Numbered from the stretch's first letter, positions 11,935 to 22,850 are shown. The stretch is DNA of 35,532 nt from Candidatus Saccharimonadales bacterium (GCA_040900025.1 JBBDZT010000022.1:1-35532), one strand, 5' to 3'. Translations and numbers: made by a program. The notes: generated from the sequence alone by a model not told the origin.

Positions 11935-13289
11935 ATTTTGACGGTATAGACCCATTTGATGGCAGATATTTCGACAAAGAAGTGAACTCGGTTTTATCCG
12001 AGCGAGAAAGACTTATATATCAGGCGGAGGTTGAGGCTGCATTAGCTATGACATTAGCCGAATCCGGAGTCTGCAGCAAGGAAATTGCTAACGAAATACA
12101 CGCCGCTTCTAAGAAAGTTACCGCGGAGGATGTATATGAAGAGGAGAAGACCACTCGCCATGACATAAAAGCTTTGGTTAACGTGATCAAAAGGCATATA
12201 TCCAGCGAAGCCAAGCCGTATGTTCATTTCGGAGCAACTAGCTACGATATCATTGCTAACGCCCAAGTTCTGCAAATGCGAACCGCTACCGATGATATAA
12301 TTCTTCCCCGCCTCAAGGAATTACTGGAAGTGCTTGTTGGCTTAACGGACAAATATGCTGAAACTCCGCAAATCGGCCGCACCCATGGCCAACACGGCGT
12401 TCCTATAACTTTTGGCTTTGCTATTGCCCAGTACGTTTCCAGGCTAGGTAATTCCATAAAAGCTATTGAAGACTTATCCGCCGGCCTACGAGGTAAATTC
12501 TCCGGCGCGACAGGCTCTTATAATGCTTTAAGTGTTTTCGTCGATGACCCTTTGAAGTTTGAAAAAGCAGTGCTAAATAAAGTCGGTCTTAAGCCGTCGG
12601 AAGCTTCCACGCAGATTGCCCCGCCGGAATACATAATCCGCTTAATAGATGAGATGACGATCGCTTCGGGAATCCTTGCAAATATCGGCCACGATATGCG
12701 GCATCTGGCCCGTACGGAAATCGCCGAAGTACGGGAAAAATTTGAAGCCGGCCAAACCGGCAGCTCAACCATGGCCCACAAGATGAACCCGTGGAACTTT
12801 GAAAACCTAATAAGCATGCACAAGCAAATGCTTTCCCAGCAGTTAAATGCCAATCTTAATCTTACCAGCGAACATCAGCGCGACTTAACCGACTCGGCTA
12901 ACTCCCGCTTTTACGTGCTGGTACCGGCAATACTTGCTAACATGGCCAAACGAGCCACACGGATAATGAGTAAAATCGAAGTCAACGAAGAGCAAATGCA
13001 AAAAAACCTTAAGCTGACCGGCGGAGCCATTGCCGCCGAACCTCTTTATTTACTGCTTGAAAAGTATGGACACACCGCAGCGCACGAGACTGCCAAGCGT
13101 ATCGCCCATAGCGCGCTTGAAAAAGGTGCTAATCTTGCCGAAGAGGTGCAAAAAGACAGCGAAGCAAAAGACTATTGGAATAAATTTGCAGACAAGGAAA
13201 AGCAAATTATCGAGAACCCCGAAAAAAACTACCTAGGCTTGGCCGCTCAAAAAGCCAAAAACATTGCTCGAAACTGGCAAACTAATTAA
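11931..13289 (+). CDS. purB: Adenylosuccinate lyase
   Basis: 452 aa with the fumarate-lyase signature GSSTMAHKMNP. Its start overlaps the purC stop (ATGA). Confidence 0.92.
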   Translation: MNFDGIDPFDGRYFDKEVNSVLSERERLIYQAEVEAALAMTLAESGVCSKEIANEIHAASKKVTAEDVYEEEKTTRHDIKALVNVIKRHISSEAKPYVHFGATSYDIIANAQVLQMRTATDDIILPRLKELLEVLVGLTDKYAETPQIGRTHGQHGVPITFGFAIAQYVSRLGNSIKAIEDLSAGLRGKFSGATGSYNALSVFVDDPLKFEKAVLNKVGLKPSEASTQIAPPEYIIRLIDEMTIASGILANIGHDMRHLARTEIAEVREKFEAGQTGSSTMAHKMNPWNFENLISMHKQMLSQQLNANLNLTSEHQRDLTDSANSRFYVLVPAILANMAKRATRIMSKIEVNEEQMQKNLKLTGGAIAAEPLYLLLEKYGHTAAHETAKRIAHSALEKGANLAEEVQKDSEAKDYWNKFADKEKQIIENPEKNYLGLAAQKAKNIARNWQTN

Positions 13290-16200
13290 TAATCAGACCA
13301 GGATTTAGGTTGATCTTTTATTAAATCTGCTATAGTGAGTGCTCTTAAAAGTAAACGGCCGGTTTCAGCGTTGGTCATCACCGGCATGTGGTGGTCTACC
13401 GCTAATCTGCGGATTGTATAGCCGTCTATATCTTCTATGTCCTCCCTTGGAACTACTACAACTAGGTCTAGTTTCTGTTTGGCTATGTAAGTTTCCAGTG
13501 AAGGTTCTTTTCTATCCTTGATTTTATATAGCTTCTTAGCTTTTATGCCGTTTTCAGTAAAGAAATCATGAGTCCCGGGGGTTGCGAAAAGCTTAAAACC
13601 GCTTTTGATGAGACTATGAGCCTCATCTATGAACTTATGTTTTTGTTCGTCAGGTACGCTAATACAAATGTTTTTACCGCTTACTTCTTGCTCTGTAGCC
13701 AACCAGGAATTATAAAAAGCCTCTTCCAAAGTATCTCCAAAACAAGCTACCTCTCCGGTTGAAGCCATCTCTACCGAAGCTACAGGGTCGGCGCCTTTCA
13801 ATCGATTGTACGAAAATTGGGGGTTCTTAACAGCTACATAGTCCAGGTCCAGAGTGTTGTACTTTTCTTTCGGATTGAGTTTGCCTAGGATAGCTTTGGT
13901 AGCCAGCTCTATAAAATTATGCTTGGTAACCTTTGAAACAAATGGGAAACTGCGGGAAGCCCGAACGTTGCATTCAATTACCTTTATGGCATTGTCTTTA
14001 GCGATGTACTGTACATTAAACGGCCCGGTTATATTAAGAGAGCTGACTATTTGCGCGGTGATTTTCTTTACTCTCCTGATTGTTTCAAGATATAAGTTCT
14101 GAGCTGGTAGAACTACTGTTGCGTCGCCGGAATGTACTCCGGCGTGTTCTATGTGCTCGCTGATGGCGTAAATTATTATTTCCCCGTTGTTCGCCACGCC
14201 ATCAATTTCGATTTCTTTCGCCGCGCTGATAAAGTCTGAAATAACCACCGGGTGGTCGGGAGATAAGTTAGTCGCCTTATCTAAGTATTGTTTTAAGTCA
14301 GCTTCGGACTCTACAACACTCATTGCCCCGCCGGATAGCACATAAGATGGTCTTACCAACACCGGATAGCTAACTTCAGAAGCAAAACTTTTTGCTCTAT
14401 CGAGAGTTGTCACCTCCTGCCAGAGCGGCTGGTCAATGTCGATCTTTTCAAGCATTGTAGAAAACAGCTTGCGATTTTCGGCATTGTTTATGTTTTTCGC
14501 GCTTGTTCCGAGTATTTTGTACCCGGCTTTGTCTAGCGGCGTCGATAGATTATTAGCGATCTGGCCGCCAACGGACACTATAATAGGGGCAGTTTTTTCA
14601 AAATCCGCTATATCGCTAACTCTTTCGTAAGTTAGTTCGTCGAAATACAGTCTGTCGGATATATCGAAATCGGTAGAAACCGTTTCCGGATTTGAGTTGA
14701 TGATAATAGTGTTCTTCTTGTTTTTTTTCAAGGTACTAACGGTATTGACCGCACACCAGTCGAATTCAACAGACGAGCCGATACAATACGGGCCGGAACC
14801 AAGCGTAATTATGCTTTTCTTCTGAGGTACTACGTCATTTTCTTTCCCGCTGTATGTCAGGTATAAATAGTTAGTTTGGGCGGAAAACTCACCAGCTAAC
14901 GTGTCAATCAACTTAACAACCGGCTTTATGCCATAAGATAGCCTAAGTTCCCTAATCTTGCCTTCTGTAGATTTAGTTAATTTCGCTAGAGCTTTATCGG
15001 AAAATCCCAGTATTTTAGCTTTATGGAGCGAGGTTTTATCTAATTCGCCGGATTTTTTAACCAGTTGCTCATGTTTTGTTATGCTGTTGATCTGGTATAA
15101 AAACCACTTGTCTATCTTGCTAAGTTTGTTAATTTCATCGACAGTTTTGCCTTTGCGCAAAGCTTCGTAAACTGCGAATATACGCCGGTAGGTCGGATTT
15201 TTTACTTCGTCAATTACATCTTCAAACTTGTAAATATGATCGCTCAAGCCATTAGAACCGGTATTTTGCATGCGTATTGCCTTTTGCAGGGCTTCAGGAA
15301 AAGACCTGGCTAGAGCCATTACTTCTCCAACACTTTTCATCTCTGAGCCGATGCGCATATTACTGTTTTTTAATTTGGTCAGATCCCAGCGGGGCATTTT
15401 TAATGCGACATAATCAAGTGCCGGCTCAAAAAATGCAGACGTTTGTCCGGTTACGGAATTTCGCAGTTCATACAGCTTTTTGCCTAAAACCAGTTTTGCC
15501 GCAACATAAGCCAGCGGGTAGCCGGTAGCTTTGGAAGCCAACGCGCTTGAACGGCTAAGCCGGGCATTAACTTCGATTACCCTATATTCGCCGGTCTTGG
15601 AATTCAGCGCATACTGGATATTACATTCACCGACTATATTCAAATGCTTTATAGTTTTGATCGCCACTTCCCGCAAGTGATGGTATTCGTGGTTTGTGAG
15701 TGTTTGACTGGGCGCTACGACTATGCTCTCACCGGTATGAATTCCCATCGGGTCCAGATTTTCCATATTGCAAACTGTTATAGTATTGCCGTCCGAATCG
15801 CGCACAACTTCATACTCGATTTCTTTCCATCCTTCCAGGTATTCTTCTATTAAAACCTGGTTTATTTTATGAAATGCTTCGCTTGTCCGAGCTATCAATT
15901 CTTTTTCGTTTTCTATCTTGCCTGAACCTAGGCCGCCTAGCGCGAATCCGGAGCGCATCATTACCGGATAGCCAATAGTTTTAGCGGCTTTTTTAGCTTC
16001 GACAATGCTATATGTAGCTATGCTTTTAGCTGTGCTGACATTAATTTTGCTCAATGCATTTTTAAATAGTTCTCTATCTTCGGTTATTTTTATGGTCTCA
16101 ATAGAAGTACCGAGTGATCTAACTTCATATCTTTCTAAAATACCTTTGTCGTGTAGTTCCAAACCTAGGTTCAGCGCCGTTTGCCCGCCGAAACTAAGTA

Positions 16201-16441
16201 GTATCCCGTCCGGACGTTCTTTTTTAATGACTTTTTCTGCCTCGGTTACGTTAAGCGGTAGGAAATAAACTTTGTCTGCCATGCCGGGATCTGTTTGTAC
16301 GGTAGCTATGTTGGGGTTAATTAAGACAGTTTTTATACTCTCTTCTTTCAATGCTTTTATAGCTTGCGAGCCGGAGTAGTCAAACTCGCCGGCTTGACCG
16401 ATTCTAAGCCCTCCTGAACCGAGTATAAGTACTTTCTTCAT
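13286..16441 (-). CDS. carB: Carbamoyl-phosphate synthase large subunit
   Basis: 1051 aa with two ATP-grasp halves: LILGSGGLRIGQAGEFDYSGSQA, and again ITLGSGPYCIGSSVEFDWC. It has an MGS-like C-terminal domain. Its stop overlaps the purB stop (convergent). Confidence 0.95.
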   Translation of the reverse strand: MKKVLILGSGGLRIGQAGEFDYSGSQAIKALKEESIKTVLINPNIATVQTDPGMADKVYFLPLNVTEAEKVIKKERPDGILLSFGGQTALNLGLELHDKGILERYEVRSLGTSIETIKITEDRELFKNALSKINVSTAKSIATYSIVEAKKAAKTIGYPVMMRSGFALGGLGSGKIENEKELIARTSEAFHKINQVLIEEYLEGWKEIEYEVVRDSDGNTITVCNMENLDPMGIHTGESIVVAPSQTLTNHEYHHLREVAIKTIKHLNIVGECNIQYALNSKTGEYRVIEVNARLSRSSALASKATGYPLAYVAAKLVLGKKLYELRNSVTGQTSAFFEPALDYVALKMPRWDLTKLKNSNMRIGSEMKSVGEVMALARSFPEALQKAIRMQNTGSNGLSDHIYKFEDVIDEVKNPTYRRIFAVYEALRKGKTVDEINKLSKIDKWFLYQINSITKHEQLVKKSGELDKTSLHKAKILGFSDKALAKLTKSTEGKIRELRLSYGIKPVVKLIDTLAGEFSAQTNYLYLTYSGKENDVVPQKKSIITLGSGPYCIGSSVEFDWCAVNTVSTLKKNKKNTIIINSNPETVSTDFDISDRLYFDELTYERVSDIADFEKTAPIIVSVGGQIANNLSTPLDKAGYKILGTSAKNINNAENRKLFSTMLEKIDIDQPLWQEVTTLDRAKSFASEVSYPVLVRPSYVLSGGAMSVVESEADLKQYLDKATNLSPDHPVVISDFISAAKEIEIDGVANNGEIIIYAISEHIEHAGVHSGDATVVLPAQNLYLETIRRVKKITAQIVSSLNITGPFNVQYIAKDNAIKVIECNVRASRSFPFVSKVTKHNFIELATKAILGKLNPKEKYNTLDLDYVAVKNPQFSYNRLKGADPVASVEMASTGEVACFGDTLEEAFYNSWLATEQEVSGKNICISVPDEQKHKFIDEAHSLIKSGFKLFATPGTHDFFTENGIKAKKLYKIKDRKEPSLETYIAKQKLDLVVVVPREDIEDIDGYTIRRLAVDHHMPVMTNAETGRLLLRALTIADLIKDQPKSWSDY

Positions 16442-17532
16442 AGAGACTCCACAAACTTATCAAACAGCCAGTTAGTATCTGTAGGCCCGGGACATGCTTC
16501 CGGATGAAACTGTACCGAAAAAAACGGTTTTGACCGATGTATGATTCCTTCTACCGAGCCATCGTTTAGGTTATAAAAATATACTTCCCAATCTTTCGGC
16601 AATGTCTTAGCATCTACGGCGTATCCGTGGTTTTGGCTTGTTATATAACACTGCCCGGTCTTCATATCCCTGCATGGTTGATTATGGCTGTGATGACCGA
16701 ACTTTAATTTATAGGTTTTAGCTCCGGCTGCAAGTGCCATCAGCTGGCTACCCAAGCATATACCAAATACGGGCCTTTCGTCTTTTATAAGTTTTTCTAT
16801 GGTTTTGATTACAGGCTTATAGTCTTTAGGATCGCCCGGTCCGTTGGATAGCATCACTCCGTCAAAACTCTCGTTTGAAAGATTATAATCAAACGGAACC
16901 CGTAAGACATTTAGCTTTCTGCCTTGGAGCGATCTGACAATATTTTCTTTAGCGCCACAGTCTATCAAAACGACCGTTTTTATTGCGCCGGCGGTTTTAT
17001 ATAATTTTGGCTTATCGATTGAAACCAATGGCTTGTTAATTTTAAAGTTGCGCATAGTGGTGTCGGAAACTATGTAGCCGTTTTCTACACCCTCTGTCCT
17101 AAGATGGCGGGTCAAAGCCCGGGTATCCACGTTTTGGATGACGGGAACATTCTGGTCCTTTAACCACTCAAGAAATGAGTAGGATGATAATGGATGGCTC
17201 CAGTCATTTATCAGGCTGCTTAAAACCACGCCTTTTGCATGAATCTTTTCTGATTCCCAGCCGGGTTTGTGCACGCCGTAATTGCCAATCAGAGGGTAAG
17301 TAAAGGTTAGTATCTGGTCAGAGTACGAAGGATCGGTCAGTGACTCAACGTAGCCGGTCATGCCGCTGTTGAATATTACTTCCGCGGCATCGGAATCCTC
17401 TTGCCAGACAGGAACTTCTCCGGAAAATGTTTTGCCATCCTCCAGGATAAGTCTGGCAGGTTTGGTCTTAAAAAAATCGCCTTTTTGGCGACTAATATTT
17501 TCTACTTTTTGTACCCTAATATTTTTATTCAC
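16438..17532 (-). CDS. carA: Carbamoyl-phosphate synthase small (glutaminase) subunit
   Basis: 364 aa with a class-I amidotransferase core (GICLGSQL, FHPE) and a CarA-specific N-domain. It has a GTG start and a 4-nt overlap with carB. Confidence 0.93.
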   Translation of the reverse strand: MNKNIRVQKVENISRQKGDFFKTKPARLILEDGKTFSGEVPVWQEDSDAAEVIFNSGMTGYVESLTDPSYSDQILTFTYPLIGNYGVHKPGWESEKIHAKGVVLSSLINDWSHPLSSYSFLEWLKDQNVPVIQNVDTRALTRHLRTEGVENGYIVSDTTMRNFKINKPLVSIDKPKLYKTAGAIKTVVLIDCGAKENIVRSLQGRKLNVLRVPFDYNLSNESFDGVMLSNGPGDPKDYKPVIKTIEKLIKDERPVFGICLGSQLMALAAGAKTYKLKFGHHSHNQPCRDMKTGQCYITSQNHGYAVDAKTLPKDWEVYFYNLNDGSVEGIIHRSKPFFSVQFHPEACPGPTDTNWLFDKFVESL

Positions 17533-17580: not shown

Positions 17581-18141
17581 TCAATTATCTTTGGGGTGTA
17601 AAACAGCGGAAAGCAGTGCGGCTACAACTAAGAATAAGGCGCTATAAAAACCTACCTCGCCGTATAGCTCTACTTTATAACCTTCATTAAAGTTCCATGT
17701 AAAGTAAGCTATGCAGGTAAGAGAATAAATTGCGATTGAAGCTATAGCCGTTGCATACAAAGCGCTTTTACTTTTTACCAGCCCAGCGATTATTATCGGA
17801 ATTATAAACAGTATAACTGCACGGCTAGCCATTCCTCTGGTTGAATAGACGCTAAATGAAGCTAGGGATAAGTCGGTTATTATCATAGCTAACAGCAATG
17901 CCCTGTACGGGATAACATTTCCGGATTTCGACTTAACAAAGTACCAGATAAAACCGTTTACTAAAAGCAACATTGACACAACGAACCATCTGTCCAGCAC
18001 GACTTCCGGTTCTATAAGCTTAGATGTGTCATACAAAATTATCTGCGCAATAAAAAGTCCTGCCAGGGCAAAATGCACTTTGCATAGACTCAGCAAACCA
18101 GAGCCAAGGCTTAACGAACTCTTTTTGTTTATGCTTTTCAC
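17581..18141 (-). CDS. Hypothetical polytopic membrane protein (about 5-6 TM helices)
   Basis: 186-aa hydrophobic ORF with a GTG start. No family was recognised. It heads the carAB transcription unit. Confidence 0.6.
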   Translation of the reverse strand: MKSINKKSSLSLGSGLLSLCKVHFALAGLFIAQIILYDTSKLIEPEVVLDRWFVVSMLLLVNGFIWYFVKSKSGNVIPYRALLLAMIITDLSLASFSVYSTRGMASRAVILFIIPIIIAGLVKSKSALYATAIASIAIYSLTCIAYFTWNFNEGYKVELYGEVGFYSALFLVVAALLSAVLHPKDN

Positions 18142-18168
18142 TTACACTAATAAATACCAGAAACAGAG
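18128..18168. repeat. Direct repeat copy A (promoter plus first codons of the membrane-protein gene)
   Basis: Hand alignment to 21038..21079 gives 37 matches in 42 columns (4 mismatches, 1 indel). Weaker similarity continues to about 18185 / 21096. Confidence 0.8.
18151..18159 (-). promoter_or_regulatory. Candidate extended -10 (TGGTATTTA), 9 nt upstream of the membrane-protein GTG
   Basis: It lies inside repeat copy A. The equivalent TGATATTTA (21062..21070) is conserved in copy B, 10 nt upstream of the relic ATG. Confidence 0.4.
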
Positions 18169-18176
18169 GTATTCTG

Positions 18177-18923
18177 TCAAATCTGTAGGGATGTTTTTTT
18201 ACTGCCAAAGTAACTTTGAGCCATCTCGTAATCTTGCCTGTTGTCCATCTCTACCCACTTTAGTCCGGTGATATCTATAGCCTTAAAATCAACTCCCGCT
18301 TGGATAATTTCGTCATAAGCGACTTCATAGTAATTCTGCAGATTATCTTCGTGTATCATCATAGTTTCCAGTGCTGCGAATAATGCTAAGGACGTCTTTT
18401 TGCTAATTCTTTCAATACCGATAGATTCGCCTATAGCTTTAGTAGCAGGCAACTTATTGCCTATACGAACCACATACCCTTCATCGTTGCAGATAATTTT
18501 TATAACTTCCTCGTCAAGAGAAGTACTGTCAGAGCAAACATAACTTTGCTCGTCATTTACGCTTGTAAGCTTTTTGATAATTTTATCGTCGAAAATAACA
18601 TCGCCGTCAAGTTTAATAAAAGTTTCTCCGTTTAAATACTCTTTAGCTACAAGCAGCGAATAGCCGGTATTTGTGGTCAAATATTTCTCGTTGGTAGCAA
18701 AAATAACGTCAAGTTCAGGAAATGTTTCGGCTAAATATGTCTTGATCATTTCTTCCATATGGCCGCAGACGATCACAAAAGAGTGAATTCCGTGTTTTTG
18801 GAGCTTTGTAATCATATGCTCAAGCACGGTGCTATTGCCAATTGGAAGCAGTGATTTTGGTTTATCTAAGGTTAGCGGTCGCAACCGGTTACCTATCCCT
18901 GCTAATAAAATAACTGCTTTCAT
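18177..18923 (-). CDS. LicC/PntC-type nucleotidyl(cytidylyl)transferase
   Basis: 248 aa with N-terminal MKAVILLAGIGNRLRPLT (GxGxRL) and KPKSLLPI. The C-terminal KWVEMDNRQDY matches the WxExD motif. Length and layout resemble phosphocholine or 2-aminoethylphosphonate cytidylyltransferases and IPCT. Confidence 0.8.
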   Translation of the reverse strand: MKAVILLAGIGNRLRPLTLDKPKSLLPIGNSTVLEHMITKLQKHGIHSFVIVCGHMEEMIKTYLAETFPELDVIFATNEKYLTTNTGYSLLVAKEYLNGETFIKLDGDVIFDDKIIKKLTSVNDEQSYVCSDSTSLDEEVIKIICNDEGYVVRIGNKLPATKAIGESIGIERISKKTSLALFAALETMMIHEDNLQNYYEVAYDEIIQAGVDFKAIDITGLKWVEMDNRQDYEMAQSYFGSKKTSLQI

Positions 18924-18933
18924 AGATGATTTC

Positions 18934-19734
18934 TTATTTACGCAGTGGGTAAGTTAATGATGAAGGGTTGTTGGCTGACTGATGGCCACGTTCCACGAGT
19001 CGGATAACTGCGATTGTGATCTGGCCAACTGCGAACAACCAGCACCATAAATCTGGGCGACTAACCAATGCGGCAAGAGCACCAAAGGTTACAAATTCAG
19101 CCTCATCAAGCGCAAACACCGAACGATGCCTAAACCATAGCCACAGCAAGCGTTGTTTTCCGGTTTTTGGGGTCAATTTCTTAGCTTCTAGCGACGCATA
19201 TAATTCCTGCCTTCGTAAACGCGACTTATTTAGGTAATCTTTATCACGATTAATAGCCGCAAACATAGTTTCAAGCTTGATATAGTAGCGGAATAAAATT
19301 CCAAAACAGGCTATAAAACCAAGTAGTAAATAGTAAGTTTTGTCTGTTAGGTTGTAGGCGGCAATCGCCATGGCAAAGCAAATTATGCCCAGCTTCAAAA
19401 CGTCAAGAGTTTTATCAAGATAGTCGCCGATTGATGAGGTTTTGCCCGTATAGCGCGCCAGTTGCCCGTCCAGGCAATCAAGAACATAGGAAAAAGGCAA
19501 TAATAAAGCCGCTAGAATACTCCACCAGCCGCCAACTACTATTAGCACAGCAGCTAACGCATAGAGTAAAAGCGAGCTGATAGTCACCATATTAGGCGTG
19601 AGTGCTTTTATTTTACTAGCGGGTTTTAACAGCTTGTTTGCGAACTTAGGGTACCAAAGATCACCCCAGTTACTAAAGTAGTTCGGTTCAATAACTGACT
19701 TGAGCTTATTAGACGGCATGGACAATTTCTTCAT
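18934..19734 (-). CDS. CDP-alcohol phosphotransferase family membrane enzyme
   Basis: 266 aa and multi-TM. It has a perfect family motif, DCLDGQLAR-(8)-GDYLDKTLD (DxxDGxxARx8GxxxDxxxD). Its 5' end overlaps the aminotransferase 3' end. Confidence 0.85.
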   Translation of the reverse strand: MKKLSMPSNKLKSVIEPNYFSNWGDLWYPKFANKLLKPASKIKALTPNMVTISSLLLYALAAVLIVVGGWWSILAALLLPFSYVLDCLDGQLARYTGKTSSIGDYLDKTLDVLKLGIICFAMAIAAYNLTDKTYYLLLGFIACFGILFRYYIKLETMFAAINRDKDYLNKSRLRRQELYASLEAKKLTPKTGKQRLLWLWFRHRSVFALDEAEFVTFGALAALVSRPDLWCWLFAVGQITIAVIRLVERGHQSANNPSSLTYPLRK

Positions 19735-20884
19735 GTTGATCGAGTTTTCTTGGGATGTGCATTTTTTCCAAAACGGATTCCTGCAGGATTTTTTCTAATT
19801 GGCGAAGAGCATACGATGTGTCGTTTTTACGCAATGCGCCGATGTGTCCAATCTGAAATATCTTATCTTTCAATACTCCTTTACCGCTGTAAACAATAAT
19901 GCCTTTTTCTTTTAGTCGTTCGGCCAGGTAGCCAAAACTCAAATGCTCTGGCATAGCTACGCAGGTGATAACGCTTGAGCTGTTACCGCCATATGACGCG
20001 TAGCTCAAACCCATTCGGTTGATTTCCGTACGTGTGTAGCTGGCTCTTTGGCGTATTGTTTTTTGAAACGAACCAATACCCTGTTCGGTGATTTCTTTGA
20101 GTGACGCATGAAGCGATACAAAAACATGCACAGCTGGAGTATTTGGCGTTTGGATATGATTGCGCATATAAAGAAAATGTTTATATAAGTCCAGGTAATG
20201 ACCGGTACTTGACGGTTCCGACAGGGTGTTAACCAGATCGCTTTTAATAATTAATATTCCTGCTCCAGGCATAGCGGACAGTGCTTTTCCGGATGCTCCG
20301 ACAATAATATCAACTCCCCACTCTTTGGCTCGAATCTTTTCCGCACCGATGCTACTGATCGCATCAACAGAAACAATCGCCCCGTATTTATGCGCTAGCT
20401 TAGTAATCTCTGCAACAGGGTTTAGCATACCGCTGCTGGTTTCGTGGTGTACGACAGCTACCATATGGTATCGCTTGCTTTTTAGGGCTTTAGCAACCGT
20501 TTTCAGGTCGATTTTTTCCTGCCAATCAAACTTGAGCTCATCAATGTCTTTATTGTGAAGTTTTGCGACGGCAAGCAGTCGTTCGCCAAACTCGCCGTTA
20601 CTTATAACTAACACAGGGCCTAACTTGCCTATGCTTGAAATAATTGTTTCATTAGCTGCCGTTCCAGAGCCGGTAATAAAAGCAACTTCGTAACTACTAT
20701 CGATACCTGCAATCGGTTTCAACATTTCCGCACTCTCGCTTAAAATGCTAGAGAATTCTGACTCTCGGTGGCCGATGTTTGTGCTTACGACAGCTCGTTG
20801 AACTGCCTTTGATAGCAATACAGGGCCTGGACATAACAAAATAGCTCTTGGTGTTTTACGGCCAATTTTAAGAATCGTTGGCAT
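19709..20884 (-). CDS. Class V (AGXT-family) aminotransferase, 2-aminoethylphosphonate:pyruvate transaminase-like
   Basis: 391 aa with LLCPGPV, FITGSGTAANE, ISNGEFGERL, VHHETSSGMLNP, DAISSIGA, SGKAL (PLP Lys) and IFQIGHIG. These blocks parallel my recollection of PhnW (VHSETTTGMLNP, DAMSSFGG, IVSNGAYGARM). Confidence 0.8.
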   Translation of the reverse strand: MPTILKIGRKTPRAILLCPGPVLLSKAVQRAVVSTNIGHRESEFSSILSESAEMLKPIAGIDSSYEVAFITGSGTAANETIISSIGKLGPVLVISNGEFGERLLAVAKLHNKDIDELKFDWQEKIDLKTVAKALKSKRYHMVAVVHHETSSGMLNPVAEITKLAHKYGAIVSVDAISSIGAEKIRAKEWGVDIIVGASGKALSAMPGAGILIIKSDLVNTLSEPSSTGHYLDLYKHFLYMRNHIQTPNTPAVHVFVSLHASLKEITEQGIGSFQKTIRQRASYTRTEINRMGLSYASYGGNSSSVITCVAMPEHLSFGYLAERLKEKGIIVYSGKGVLKDKIFQIGHIGALRKNDTSYALRQLEKILQESVLEKMHIPRKLDQHEEIVHAV

Positions 20885-20980
20885 TAGTAATACTTTCTTT
20901 TTTTATATTGTGACTAAAAGGTAATCACGAAAAGGCACGTTTCTTTGGTTGTGAAATCTCGAGAAGAATCTAGTATCTAT

Positions 20981-20989
20981 ACTATATCA
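20981..20989 (-). promoter_or_regulatory. Candidate extended -10 (TGATATAGT) for the three-gene cassette
   Basis: Minus-strand TGATATAGT lies about 95 nt upstream of the aminotransferase ATG. It is overlapped by the palindrome TAGTAT-CT-ATACTA (20971..20984). Confidence 0.3.
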
Positions 20990-21006
20990 CAAAAAAATTA
21001 ATTAGA

Positions 21007-21051
21007 CTAGCTTAAGCAATATGGTTGGGGGGGGCCATTTATGCTTTTCAT
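21007..21051 (-). pseudogene. Relic 5' end of a membrane-protein gene copy (MKSIN then out-of-homology, 14 codons then TAG)
   Basis: Minus-strand ATGAAAAGCATAAAT duplicates the first five codons (MKSIN) of gene 17581..18141. The reading frame then runs through a C8 tract and stops. Confidence 0.5.
21027..21034. repeat. G8 homopolymer tract
   Basis: ttGGGGGGGGcc lies immediately beside the point where repeat-B homology ends. Confidence 0.9.
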
Positions 21052-21079
21052 TTACACTAAATAAATATCAGACAAAGAG
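21038..21079. repeat. Direct repeat copy B
   Basis: See copy A. Together the two copies bracket the 2.9-kb three-gene cassette. Confidence 0.8.
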
Positions 21080-21104
21080 ATAACGTGCCAAATCAGAGTG
21101 ATCT

Positions 21105-21827
21105 TCATAAGTTTATTCGGACAAGTTTTGTATTAATTTCACCATCTTTTTCATAATTAACAATAATGTCTATAACTTTTTCAGTTTTTCTCACGTCAGT
21201 ATATACATAACCTGTTCTTGAAATACCGGTGTTTATGTTGCCTTCTAAACTGTCTTGAAAGTAGGGGTTATAGCTCCCAAACCAAATAAAAGGATTGTCA
21301 GTAAATACAGACTCTTCTACATCTCTCCCGCTGTCGGGCAGTAATGTTATTTTTAACTTGGAAGTATCTACATTGCCAAAGGCTTGAATTACATAGTCAA
21401 TGACTATTTGCTGATGCTCTTCGGAATATTTCTTGATTTCGTTTCTTGCCTTATTCCTTAGCTCGCAATCGTAAAGTGGGGAGTTACGTAATAGGCTACC
21501 ACCTGAGTCAATAAAAGCTTGCTCAAAGTCGGTGTATGGACCAACTGTATCGGATAACATTTTGCAATTTTCCTGCTTATCCATATTTCCATATTTTTTA
21601 ACTACGTTTTCTTCAAAAGGTAAATCAACTGGTTTTAATTCAGTTTTATTAATCTTTAATTCAAAATCAGGAAGTTTAACTATTTCATTTGCAAAATAGA
21701 CTTTCTTCGCTTGAGAACGATAATCAAGATATTCTTTAATACTAAATACTGACAAAGCTATTAGTAGAATTATCGCAAAATAAATCATCATTTTATTTTT
21801 AAAAAAGTTGCTTTTGTTGAGTTTCAT
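21105..21827 (-). CDS. Hypothetical N-terminally anchored protein, predicted extracytoplasmic domain
   Basis: 240 aa with a Lys-rich N-terminus followed by one TM helix (MMIYFAIILLIALSVFSI). No family was recognised. The coding sequence is AT-rich. Confidence 0.6.
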   Translation of the reverse strand: MKLNKSNFFKNKMMIYFAIILLIALSVFSIKEYLDYRSQAKKVYFANEIVKLPDFELKINKTELKPVDLPFEENVVKKYGNMDKQENCKMLSDTVGPYTDFEQAFIDSGGSLLRNSPLYDCELRNKARNEIKKYSEEHQQIVIDYVIQAFGNVDTSKLKITLLPDSGRDVEESVFTDNPFIWFGSYNPYFQDSLEGNINTGISRTGYVYTDVRKTEKVIDIIVNYEKDGEINTKLVRINL

Positions 21828-21857
21828 ATTTATATACCTGCCTATATTATCTTAATT

Positions 21858-22517
21858 TTAATCTATCTTTAATATTCGTTTCCAGATTGGTCTATATGGA
21901 TTGACTTCGCATAAAAGACTTCCGTTATGTCTTTTATTTAAATTTACATTGAATTTCAATCTTTTTCTTCCATGATAGTCTTTAATTTCAACAGCAAGTT
22001 TTTTAGAATCACTAAATCTTGCAGTATCGATATTAATTTTTGGTGAAGAATCCGAATCTCTATTTGGCTCATAAATAAAGTAAGTAGACGGATCATTATG
22101 TTTCCAAATAAATAGTGATAGATTCATATTTTTTGCTGACTTTATTGTGACTCGCTCTTTTACATCAGACGGATTGGTCGGTATTTTCCACCATAACCGA
22201 CATATATATTCACCAGTTTCTTTGTCAATAAGCATCGCCTTACATCTGTAAGCTTCGTTACGATCAATTATTGGACCTGCTTGGAAACTTCCATGAATTG
22301 GCCAGCCGAAAAGTGTAGTTTCTCCTAGTCTTAGGCCTAGAACTCCAGGTTTATTTTGTATCGTAACGTGATTATGGTTATATTCTGCTCCCACGCCTCC
22401 ACCTGAACCACCTCCCCCAACTACTAGTTTCGGTCTTTTTATGTAATAATTTAGCCAGACCCCAAATAATAAAATGACTAGAGATACTGGTATTACATAA
22501 ATATTGAACTCACTCAT
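21858..22517 (-). CDS. Hypothetical N-terminally anchored protein with Gly-rich linker, predicted cytoplasmic domain
   Basis: 219 aa with one TM helix (IYVIPVSLVILLFGVWLNYY) followed by KRPK and then GGGGSGGGVG. No family was recognised. The sequence is AT-rich and the start lies 9 nt after the tRNA-Gln 3' end. Confidence 0.6.
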   Translation of the reverse strand: MSEFNIYVIPVSLVILLFGVWLNYYIKRPKLVVGGGGSGGGVGAEYNHNHVTIQNKPGVLGLRLGETTLFGWPIHGSFQAGPIIDRNEAYRCKAMLIDKETGEYICRLWWKIPTNPSDVKERVTIKSAKNMNLSLFIWKHNDPSTYFIYEPNRDSDSSPKINIDTARFSDSKKLAVEIKDYHGRKRLKFNVNLNKRHNGSLLCEVNPYRPIWKRILKID

Positions 22518-22526
22518 ATATAAATT

Positions 22527-22600
22527 TGGCTTCCGGGCTAGGGCTCGAACCTAGATTGCTGGGACCAAAACCCAGTGTCCTACCATTAGACGACCCGGAA
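22527..22600 (-). tRNA. tRNA-Gln (anticodon UUG), CCA encoded
   Basis: Hand-folded cloverleaf. Acceptor stem is TTCCGGG/CCCGGAA with U1-A72 and G73 (Gln identity features). D-loop is AATGGTA. Anticodon stem is CTGGG/CCCAG with loop TTTTGGT. T-arm is CTAGG-TTCGAGC-CCTAG, followed by a 3' CCA. Confidence 0.9.
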
Positions 22601-22743
22601 TTAAACTACATACCTTATTGTAAACGTTCGGTTCACAGAACCGAAGGGACCAAGCCACCTTTGGCAGCCCCGAAACTTCGCTGGTTGAAAACAAGTTTCA
22701 ACTCGGAAGGTTTCCTTGCGGATTGCTATTCACAGCAATCCTC

Positions 22744-22773
22744 ACCCAGTACCCACCAATAGACGACCCGGAA
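22744..22773 (-). pseudogene. Degenerate copy of the 5' half of tRNA-Gln (acceptor 5' strand, D arm, 5' anticodon stem)
   Basis: TTCCGGGTCGTCTATTGGTGGGTACTGGGT compared with TTCCGGGTCGTCTAATGGTAGGACACTGGGT in the intact gene (3 substitutions, 1 deletion). Similarity ends at the anticodon loop and no 3' half follows. Confidence 0.75.
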
Positions 22774-22850
22774 ATAAGTTGATAATGAATCGGAATTATA
22801 CAACAGGTCATATTGTACCAACAGCAGTAGTAACCCGCCAGTTAAAACTC

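Follow-up and report, generated by a model that had tools for sequence, protein, structure and literature searches.

A metabolic cassette between two copies of a gene start in a Candidatus Saccharimonadales bacterium is best fitted by an old insertion scar of a described kind

Introduction

In a Candidatus Saccharimonadales bacterium, a three-gene metabolic operon lies between two copies of a short block that joins a promoter-like sequence to the first five codons of one gene, the membrane-protein gene heading carAB. How did the operon come to stand there, and what did the event leave behind? The window analysed here is the whole stretch of 35,532 nucleotides (GCA_040900025.1 JBBDZT010000022.1:1-35532). 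A first-pass annotation had read the arrangement as an insertion or recombination scar. All features concerned lie on the minus strand, so that upstream means towards higher coordinates:

22527-22600, minus strand: tRNA-Gln(UUG), upstream anchor of a variable interval
21105-22517, minus strand: AT-rich islet with two orphan genes (240 and 219 aa), between tRNA-Gln and repeat copy B
19709-20884, minus strand: PhnW/AepZ-like class-V aminotransferase, 391 aa
18934-19734, minus strand: CDP-alcohol phosphotransferase family protein, 266 aa
18177-18923, minus strand: nucleotidyltransferase, 248 aa
17581-18141, minus strand: target gene, a conserved 186-aa multi-pass membrane protein, heading carAB
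16438-17532, minus strand: carA, downstream of the target gene
13286-16441, minus strand: carB, downstream of the target gene (carA and carB together span 13286-17532)

Results

Two copies of a promoter-like and gene-start block flank the cassette

The similarity first reported between 18128-18168 and 21038-21079 (37 matches in 42 columns) was reproduced by fresh alignment and belongs to a direct repeat of 57 nt with 82.5% identity, ungapped apart from one indel (18128-18183 versus 21038-21094). Beyond the repeat, the next ~10 nt upstream (18184-18194 versus 21095-21104) match at ~6/10, a chance-like level. The two copies and the sequences joining them to the insert are as follows:

21038-21094, minus strand: repeat copy B, a relic (alignment, BLAST, consensus promoter scan), with -35 TTGGCA at 21086-21091, TGATATTTA at 21062-21070 and ATG at 21049-21051
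21007-21051, minus strand: relic ORF MKSINGPPQPYCLS*, 14 codons, five from the membrane-protein gene and then junction sequence (translation)
21014-21037, minus strand: left junction filler, including a C8 tract (G8 on the plus strand, 21027-21034)
20885-21013, minus strand: the cassette's own upstream region, with a putative extended -10 promoter and a ~100-nt leader
18184-18206, minus strand: right junction zone, where cassette homology is over (last aligned base ~18225) and the repeat has not begun
18128-18183, minus strand: repeat copy A, the promoter-like block with codons 1-5 of the membrane-protein gene (alignment, BLAST), with -35 TTGACA at 18175-18180, TGGTATTTA at 18151-18159 and the GTG start at 18139-18141

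Both copies read as first described. Copy A carries TTGACA and TATTTA at a spacing of 18, with TG before the latter (TGGTATTTA), followed by GTG AAA AGC ATA AAC, and is continuous with the intact membrane-protein gene. Copy B carries TTGGCA and TATTTA at the same spacing (TGATATTTA), followed by ATG AAA AGC ATA AAT, and then runs into GGCCCCCCCC, giving a frame of 14 codons. The three cassette genes lie wholly between the copies, again in agreement with the earlier description, and the stop codon of the last of them (TGA, 18177-18179) sits within the -35 hexamer of copy A.

A BLAST search with a 101-nt query against the window's whole assembly (654 kb, 75% complete) returned the repeat with E = 1.4e-9, and an all-against-all self-BLAST of the assembly returned it with E = 4.9e-7. 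No third copy was found in the 654 kb, the next matches being 14-17 nt long and at chance level (E at least 0.37). The whole-genome search suggested earlier as a check for a dispersed element thus yields two copies only, in contrast to a REP- or MITE-like repeat with many copies at unrelated sites. Identity between the copies is 22/23 in the nucleotides adjoining the gene versus 25/34 in the distal ones, a gradient with p ~0.05 under uniform decay by our own calculation, and the longest perfect run is 13 nt. The higher identity next to the gene would fit a crossover core; it is equally well explained by constraint on copy A.

The closest relative carries the block once and lacks the cassette

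The membrane-protein gene, whose product has a weak PilS-like 6TM match, was found in 34 of 41 genomes, and its linkage with carAB is conserved in the genus. Its GTG start is backed by N-terminal conservation (VKSINKK in the closest relative, G003, and M-K/S-K-N-K-like in others). G003 has the promoter/start block once, has no cassette and is collinear downstream; its block is 81% identical to copy A and 79-82% to copy B, and the two copies are about 82% identical to each other. Collinearity could be followed on one side only, because no orthologue of the upstream neighbour, the 240-aa gene, was found in the genus and the G003 contig stops 122 nt upstream of the membrane-protein gene; that flank is unrelated to the window flank or the cassette. 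The empty site predicted by the first-pass annotation, with the 240-aa gene directly followed by the membrane-protein gene, occurred in no genome searched. Its alternative of an ancient fixed architecture was not borne out either, as the arrangement is not common to the relatives. Five genus relatives each have one copy of the block, whose promoter sequence is conserved no further than G003. No relic of the block was found upstream of the membrane-protein gene in 13 relatives, arguing that the site is not recurrently used.

At four positions where copy A agrees with G003, copy B alone differs (-35 A>G, a T insertion, GTG>ATG and AAC>AAT); copy A alone differs once in these comparisons. The changes confined to copy B suggest relaxed constraint on that copy, in favour of the best explanation below. 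An A/G difference between the copies touches the neutral n if TGnTATTTA is taken as the element; in an alternative hexamer, GATATT, it hits the critical A, and that hexamer is lost in copy A (GGTATT). A consensus promoter scan lists copy B and not copy A. Which of the two putative promoters still fires is accordingly ambiguous, depending on the -10 assignment.

The cassette is foreign and brings its own predicted promoter

The inserted unit of ~2.85 kb, with its three metabolic genes, is shorter than 20 kb and carries no other mobile-element genes. No orthologue was found in 40 relatives, and across the order the cassette occurs in 2 of 401 genomes; in the other of these it lies 19 kb from the membrane-protein gene. 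Wherever else a locus is long enough to tell, these three genes recur in an unchanged order, within unrelated neighbourhoods. Nucleotide homology to these loci covers window positions 21013-18225, ending ~25 nt to the inside of copy B and ~40 nt short of copy A. The left junction filler (21014-21037) is without a match in the target or in other cassette loci, and at the right end homology is lost at the final few codons of the nucleotidyltransferase, whose last ~8 residues (SKKTSLQI) are absent from homologues. Flanking repeats were not found at cassette loci elsewhere, which argues against a mode of entry inherent to the cassette. Judged by these comparisons, the cassette is foreign and portable, and was horizontally acquired.

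An extended -10 promoter, TGTGATATAGT, is predicted at 20981-20991, and this promoter and the leader are common to three other low-GC cassette loci; the leader has no Rfam match and no significant fold. Copy B would therefore not be needed for cassette expression, since the cassette brings its own conserved predicted promoter; this weakens the first-pass suggestion that duplicating the promoter kept both units expressed. No terminator-like site was found between copy B and the cassette, nor between the cassette and copy A. The aminotransferase scores 266.7 bits against TIGR03301, below the cut-off of 360.8. Assignment to a 2-aminoethylphosphonate pathway calls for a PEP mutase (PF13714) in the same genome; the enzyme was found neither in the window's own assembly (75% complete) nor in a cassette-bearing single-contig genome of ~0.9 Mb (98% complete), which leaves the cargo outside that pathway as so defined.

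A variable upstream interval and no recombinase in the window

The islet at 21105-22517 has a GC content of 32.8%, and the interval from tRNA-Gln to the membrane-protein gene is different in every relative examined. At tRNA-Gln itself, 1.6 kb upstream, a second layout of relic, insert and intact gene is seen, and partial tandem gene copies often occur next to tRNA genes of this genome.

The earlier statement that no recombinase gene is nearby holds for the window, in which no transposase, integrase or recombinase domains were found, and needs qualifying for the adjacent 240-aa gene, whose homologues adjoin large serine recombinases in three other contigs. The assembly's sole tyrosine recombinase (PF00589) is on another contig (C15). 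Usual transposon target-site duplications measure 2-14 bp, and the duplication of 57 bp is far longer, as the first-pass annotation had pointed out. Like such a duplication, the blocks are direct target repeats at both ends of an insert; however, a transposon or insertion sequence was rejected, given the 57-bp length and the absence of a transposase and of terminal inverted repeats at the insert ends.

Discussion

The locus as a probable insertion with long target duplication

Collectively, a foreign and portable cassette, a repeat that is not dispersed, relatives without the arrangement and a single block in G003 bear out the scar reading. We consider it probable that the locus is a scar left by an "insertion with long target duplication", a class described by Furuta, Abe & Kobayashi 2010 (NAR 38:2428; PMC2853133) and recognized by repeats of > 30 bp that are unique in the genome and align once in a related genome, without another mobile element. 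The present locus resembles this class in its unit of < 20 kb without transposase or integrase, its unique repeats, at 57 nt longer than 30 bp, and the single copy in a relative. It differs in that the cargo is a metabolic head-group operon rather than a restriction-modification system, the repeats are 82% identical where those of the class are mostly > 90%, the duplicated piece is a promoter plus gene start, and only one flank can be aligned with a relative. Insertion with long target duplication is reportedly also attributed to Nobusato et al. in 2000. On the best fit, then, this is an old insertion scar of a described kind with a metabolic cargo, and no new mobile element or switch.

In such an event, the three-gene operon, with its own promoter and leader, would have been joined into the variable interval downstream of tRNA-Gln and have come to rest right at the beginning of the membrane-gene/carAB operon. 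Some 57 bp of target sequence, the promoter-like block and five codons, would have been copied, with one copy on each side of the insert: copy A would stay joined to the intact gene, and copy B would become a stranded promoter-like relic opening a 14-codon ORF. The most likely route would be recombinase-independent joining of naked foreign DNA, its two joints made in staggered target order through fill-in of a staggered break or a microhomology-mediated template switch. A single-crossover or one-sided homology-facilitated route by way of a related block copy is nearly as likely. Saccharibacteria are naturally transformable. Most reports of the insertion class concern naturally competent bacteria (PMC2853133).

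The putative promoters lie at most 11 nt from the start codon, so the mRNA would have little or no leader, and promoter and start would thus behave as one unit. An insertion so near the gene start may have been tolerated only if this unit was regenerated beside the gene. Cassette transcripts probably read through into the membrane-protein gene and carAB, no terminator-like site having been found on the way. As to timing, the distance between the copies is 0.21 substitutions per site, compared with a near-saturated neutral distance to G003 of ~1.1 (the window and G003 agree at only 40-44% of four-fold degenerate sites), which suggests an event that is old, yet younger than the split from the G003 lineage.

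Alternative explanations

Entry by way of a related (homeologous) block copy, one of the two copies then being native and the other donor-derived, is somewhat unlikely. Either a re-circularised fragment carrying the cassette and a related promoter/start copy would have entered by a single crossover, or a related strain's linear donor (cassette, promoter and membrane-protein gene) would have been anchored in the membrane-protein gene or carAB, with an illegitimate joint at codon 5 of the recipient gene. The blocks of A, B and G003 are about equidistant (81, 81, 79%), so that one copy could come from another lineage and not from duplication in place. The sharp boundary on the copy B side, with the 13-nt perfect run and 22/23 identity beside it and lower identity distally, fits as well, and natural competence in Saccharibacteria makes homology-guided uptake plausible. 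However, a crossover test against G003 gave no clear signal (best chimera 9 differences, unmixed 11-12), no mosaic step in identity to G003 appeared along the membrane-protein gene and carAB, no relative has the cassette beside the membrane-protein gene as a possible donor, and 57 nt at 82%, matching perfectly for no more than 13 nt in a row, make a poor RecA substrate. In transformable bacteria, Campbell-type insertion-duplication and homology-facilitated illegitimate recombination likewise set an insert between two short target copies, one joined to the intact gene, but they need a block copy on the incoming DNA, and no such donor arrangement was found.

Two-step promoter capture is very unlikely. 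The cassette would first have stood directly upstream of the promoter, a tandem duplication would have taken in cassette, promoter and five codons and so set the captured promoter before a second cassette, and the first cassette would then have been deleted; alternatively, a tandem duplication of the membrane-protein gene came first, and most of its upstream copy gave way to the cassette. Experiments show tandem duplication with capture to be frequent and microhomology-driven (Li & Bock 2019, PMC6614815), PMC3575422 cites the Cit+ case, and the partial tandem copies beside tRNA genes of this genome point the same way. With 82% identity over 57 nt upstream of unrelated genes (membrane protein and aminotransferase), the repeat also falls under putative mobile promoters as defined by Matus-Garcia, Nijveen & van Passel 2012 (PMC3575422), for whom two non-paralogous genes of one genome must be preceded by sequence at least 80% identical over 50 nt or more, although it lies nearer the start codon than that study's window of -150 to -50. 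As in promoter reuse or capture (PMC3575422, PMC6614815), a native promoter stands before a horizontally acquired gene; here, in contrast, the cassette carries a promoter of its own, coding sequence forms part of the shared block, and there is one cassette copy and no standing tandem duplication. Two or three events with precise end points would be required, neither junction holds a remnant of a second cassette or of the 3' end of the membrane-protein gene, and selection for capture would be weak because the cassette already had a conserved promoter.

Still less probable is that the blocks are attL and attR of a site-specific element whose recombinase was lost or that was mobilised in trans (cis-mobilisable-like), its attP carrying the 5' end of the target gene and restoring it. 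Target-restoring integrative elements include tRNA-3'-end islands and islands in the 5' ends of protein genes such as dusA, and they too leave a gene-end relic at one end of the insert and the intact gene at the other. The similar layout at tRNA-Gln 1.6 kb upstream, the serine-recombinase link of the adjacent 240-aa gene's family and the sharp boundary at codon 5 agree with this. Serine recombinases, however, leave only a few bp of shared core. The window has no recombinase, with the assembly's one tyrosine recombinase elsewhere; the space between the repeats has room for three metabolic genes and none for element functions; the site lacks a block relic in 13 relatives; and other cassette loci lack flanking repeats. 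An integrase-mediated island was rejected on the missing integrase and the lack of recurrent site use.

That the similarity is no scar at all, whether a dispersed intergenic repeat, an operator or leader shared for co-regulation, or chance, draws on both blocks being promoter-like and of the same TGn-extended type, and is hardly credible, being refuted by copy number and context: there are only two copies (E at most 1e-7) and one in each of five genus relatives, the similarity takes in the start codon and four further codons of one specific gene, the block is missing upstream of the conserved leader at other cassette loci, and the promoter sequence is unconserved beyond G003.

Implications

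Beyond the insertion with long target duplication proposed for this locus, a broader reading, that such recombinase-independent cassette uptake is general in CPR (and DPANN) genomes and that copy B is a working second promoter, is unlikely. If it were true, insertion at a gene end would be coupled to the copying of tens of target bases, regenerating a promoter-start unit or a tRNA end. The relic layout at tRNA-Gln, the tRNA-anchored modules and the bracketed mini-cassettes of this genome would then be products of one process, and copy B with its C8 tract, possibly tunable by slippage, would couple the cassette to the control of the pyrimidine operon.

Two copies of a promoter-and-start block bracket the cassette

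The locus lies in a MAG of 654 kb in 50 contigs (75% complete). Its features are listed below; the remainder of the window carries purine biosynthesis and housekeeping genes.

Features of the cassette locus, in order of transcription
22600-22527, minus strand: tRNA-Gln(UUG)
22517-21858 and 21827-21105, minus strand: two AT-rich orphan genes
21094-21038, minus strand: repeat copy B
20884-19709, minus strand: PhnW/AepZ-like class-V aminotransferase
19734-18934, minus strand: CDP-alcohol phosphotransferase
18923-18177, minus strand: nucleotidyltransferase
18183-18128, minus strand: repeat copy A
18141-17581, minus strand: multi-pass membrane protein, 186-aa
17532-16438, minus strand: carA
16441-13286, minus strand: carB

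In the annotated 5' end of carA (window 17475-17525) lie two tandem 21-nt repeats and, on the minus strand at 17493-17475, a terminator-like hairpin with a T-run. CarA matches its family model only from residue 26 onwards; the region may be an attenuator, or the carA start may be annotated too far upstream. Rfam searches of the region and of the whole window match tRNA-Gln only.

The aminotransferase, phosphotransferase and nucleotidyltransferase genes form a cassette bracketed by two copies of a block that comprises a promoter-like stretch and the first five codons of the membrane-protein gene. Copy A is fused to the intact gene, and copy B is a relic stranded on the far side of the cassette. 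The first-pass annotation had reported 37 matches in 42 columns; alignment reproduces this count, and alignment and self-BLAST extend the match to 57 nt at 82.5% identity, so that the repeat is confirmed. The BLAST search that the annotation had proposed finds only two copies in the whole assembly (E = 1.4e-9 against the assembly and, separately, 4.9e-7 in self-BLAST), which contradicts a dispersed repeat, and each of five same-genus genomes searched carries at most one copy of the block.

Copy A reads TTGACA-18-TATTTA with TG ahead, nine bases, then GTG AAA AGC ATA AAC, and copy B reads TTGGCA-18-TATTTA, ten bases, then ATG AAA AGC ATA AAT, downstream of which it enters GGCCCCCCCC and its ORF ends after 14 codons. 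Conservation of the N-terminus across relatives supports the GTG as the start of the membrane gene. The two copies agree at 22/23 gene-proximal positions and at 25/34 in the rest of the repeat, a difference that may reflect a crossover core and that constraint on copy A would explain equally well. A Dif/Xer-like site inside the block was ruled out by eye, its arms being 17 nt apart. Promoter and start codon are separated by at most 11 nt, there is no Shine-Dalgarno sequence, and the two probably function as a single unit, which would account for their joint duplication. A consensus scan lists the promoter of copy B but not that of copy A, and its yield of promoter-like sites in the region does not exceed that in shuffles. 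Of the two possible hexamer assignments, one makes the lone A/G difference close to the -10 neutral and the other makes it harmful to copy A.

The cassette has its own promoter and is of foreign origin

A conserved extended -10 promoter, TGTGGTATAGT, lies upstream of the cassette, in the window as TGTGATATAGT at 20981-20991. Together with a leader of ~100 nt that holds several conserved blocks, it occupies window 20885-21013 and is common to four low-GC cassette loci. The cassette leader has no Rfam match and does not fold significantly. In the leader downstream of copy B (fold z = 0.15), neither structure nor a terminator is seen. A riboswitch candidate was dropped because the conservation is confined to the four closest low-GC loci and does not reach the high-GC cassette loci. 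Since no terminator-like sites were found separating copy B, the cassette and copy A, read-through from the cassette into the membrane gene and carAB is likely.

Comparative sequence evidence indicates that the cassette is foreign. The aminotransferase has no orthologue in 40 relatives, and of 401 genomes sampled in the order only 2 carry it. The homologues nearest to it (74% amino-acid identity) are on other low-GC contigs, where the identical trio stands in identical order in unrelated neighbourhoods, in one case adjoining an IS1595 transposase; the same trio is present at all further loci long enough to show it. Searches with the aminotransferase gave no matches in genome contigs or viral contigs and 12 cassette-clade loci in metagenomes, none above 70% amino-acid identity and none adjoining the membrane gene. 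Exact-protein look-ups with the aminotransferase, the membrane protein and the 240-aa protein encoded next to copy B returned one other contig only, its arrangement 100% identical. The GC content of the cassette (42.1%) matches that of the genome (43.4%), so the transfer would be either old or from a similar genome.

Nucleotide homology to the other cassette loci spans window 21013 to 18225, including ~130 nt 5' of the first cassette gene, and thus places the cassette edges just inside the repeats. The nucleotidyltransferase homology stops at ...YF and is followed by eight unrelated codons, the TGA stop falling within the TTGACA of copy A. Junction fillers of ~24 nt on the left (holding the C8 tract) and ~20 nt on the right have no matches in the genome; a likeness of the junction to the 3' end of the membrane gene (~11/13 with an indel) was judged to be chance. 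No flanking repeats were found at three other cassette loci.

The cargo itself looks like a head-group activation and transfer module. PEP mutase was found neither in this assembly (75% complete) nor in a trio-carrying single-contig genome of ~0.9 Mb (98% complete), and the score of the aminotransferase falls short of the PhnW/AepZ cut-off, so that aminoethylphosphonate made by the cell itself is probably not the substrate of this enzyme.

The duplication postdates the split from the closest relative

Of 41 genomes, 34 conserve the membrane gene, which heads carAB within the genus. In the closest relative, SMAG_U1624, the membrane protein is 91% identical to that of the window, and the promoter and start block occurs once, preceded by sequence that is unrelated to the cassette and has no matches in the window's genome. 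Copy A, copy B and the SMAG_U1624 block are about equidistant (81, 81 and 79%). Copy B alone departs from the state shared by the other two at four positions (the -35, a one-base insertion, the start codon and codon 5), and copy A alone at one, so copy B appears to be under weaker constraint. At four-fold degenerate sites, the window and SMAG_U1624 are only 40-44% identical. Against a neutral distance to SMAG_U1624 of ~1.1, copies A and B are only 0.21 apart, which dates the duplication as old but later than the split, in agreement with the lack of the cassette in SMAG_U1624. Crossover-point and mosaic tests against this genome gave no signal.

The cassette lies in a probable plasticity zone

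In the relatives examined, tRNA-Gln and the membrane gene are separated by an interval of 2.7-9 kb, whose gene content differs in every one of them. The sole interval gene common to relatives, of ~130 aa and adjoining the membrane gene in three of them, is missing from the window. Homology among copy A, copy B and the SMAG_U1624 block stops at one common point just upstream of the -35, indicating that the promoter of the conserved operon marks the edge of the zone. The interval would thus be a plasticity zone whose downstream limit lies exactly at that -35.

The reading of the repeat as an insertion scar is supported, but the empty site that the first-pass annotation anticipated, with the 240-aa gene followed directly by the membrane gene, was not found: the genus has no orthologue of the 240-aa gene, none of the genomes examined shows a strict empty site, and the SMAG_U1624 contigs break on both sides of the interval.

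The two orphan genes form an islet (window 21105-22517, 32.8% GC) that begins 9 nt past tRNA-Gln and lacks orthologues within the genus. Three other Saccharimonadales-like contigs encode homologues of the 240-aa protein (37-43% identity), each at 1-3 kb from a large serine recombinase and in one case also adjoining tRNA-Gln(UUG). The islet is thus probably a fragment, now decayed, of an integrative element. No relic of the tRNA-Gln 3' end was found downstream of the islet or the cassette, and a classical tRNA-3' att island was rejected on this ground.

Structured modules and repeats beside tRNA genes

The tRNA-Gln gene, 1.6 kb upstream, shows the same topology of relic, insert and intact gene: within window 22601-22775, the first 30 nt of the gene recur as a relic (22746-22775), followed by a 145-nt hairpin-rich insert. 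SMAG_U1624 has neither. The insert holds one three-hairpin core of ~70-85 nt, part of a structured module widespread beside tRNA genes in the order and without an Rfam match. The core has four copies in this assembly and one to six in each of 22 of 41 relatives. Of 14 copies inspected, 10 have a co-oriented tRNA gene at a distance of 40-100 nt. Copies on the downstream side are embedded in a partial copy of the adjacent tRNA, the core occupying the T-loop, and relic 3' ends match the parent tRNA at up to 22/22 positions.

Elsewhere in the assembly, a type-IV-pilin-like gene with an N-terminal KGFSVVEIL motif (L046:525-1738, equivalent to contig C30:12595-13808) is flanked by 91-nt direct repeats (94.5%), each starting with the last 15 nt of the adjoining tRNA-Glu, and a copy of the structured module lies between tRNA-Glu and the first repeat. 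Perfect 55-nt direct repeats at 155-nt spacing occur on contigs C3 (5605-5814, by tRNA-Leu), C6, C36 and C46, and may represent either a repeat family or a duplication in the assembly.

Mechanism and significance

The features of the locus match "insertion with long target duplication", a class defined on restriction-modification units that entered genomes between unique repeats of 46-423 bp, unaccompanied by any other mobile element and chiefly in competent species (PMC2853133). Whereas the known cargo is restriction-modification, here it is metabolic. The duplication may have arisen through staggered or template-switch joining, or the incoming DNA may already have carried a related copy of the block. 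Two-step promoter capture, the route of PMC6614815, is less parsimonious, as the cassette already has its own promoter. The window lacks transposase and integrase domains, bearing out the earlier remark that no recombinase is nearby; this contradicts a transposase origin and, together with the lack of block relics in 13 relatives, an integrase att pair. A shared operator is contradicted by copy number and context.

As a single case whose mechanism we infer, the locus changes little. It would nonetheless be a case of operon gain by a very small, recombinase-poor Saccharimonadales genome that left an essential neighbouring operon unbroken, the promoter-and-start unit being copied rather than split, and would extend insertion with long target duplication from cultured, competent bacteria to the candidate phyla radiation.
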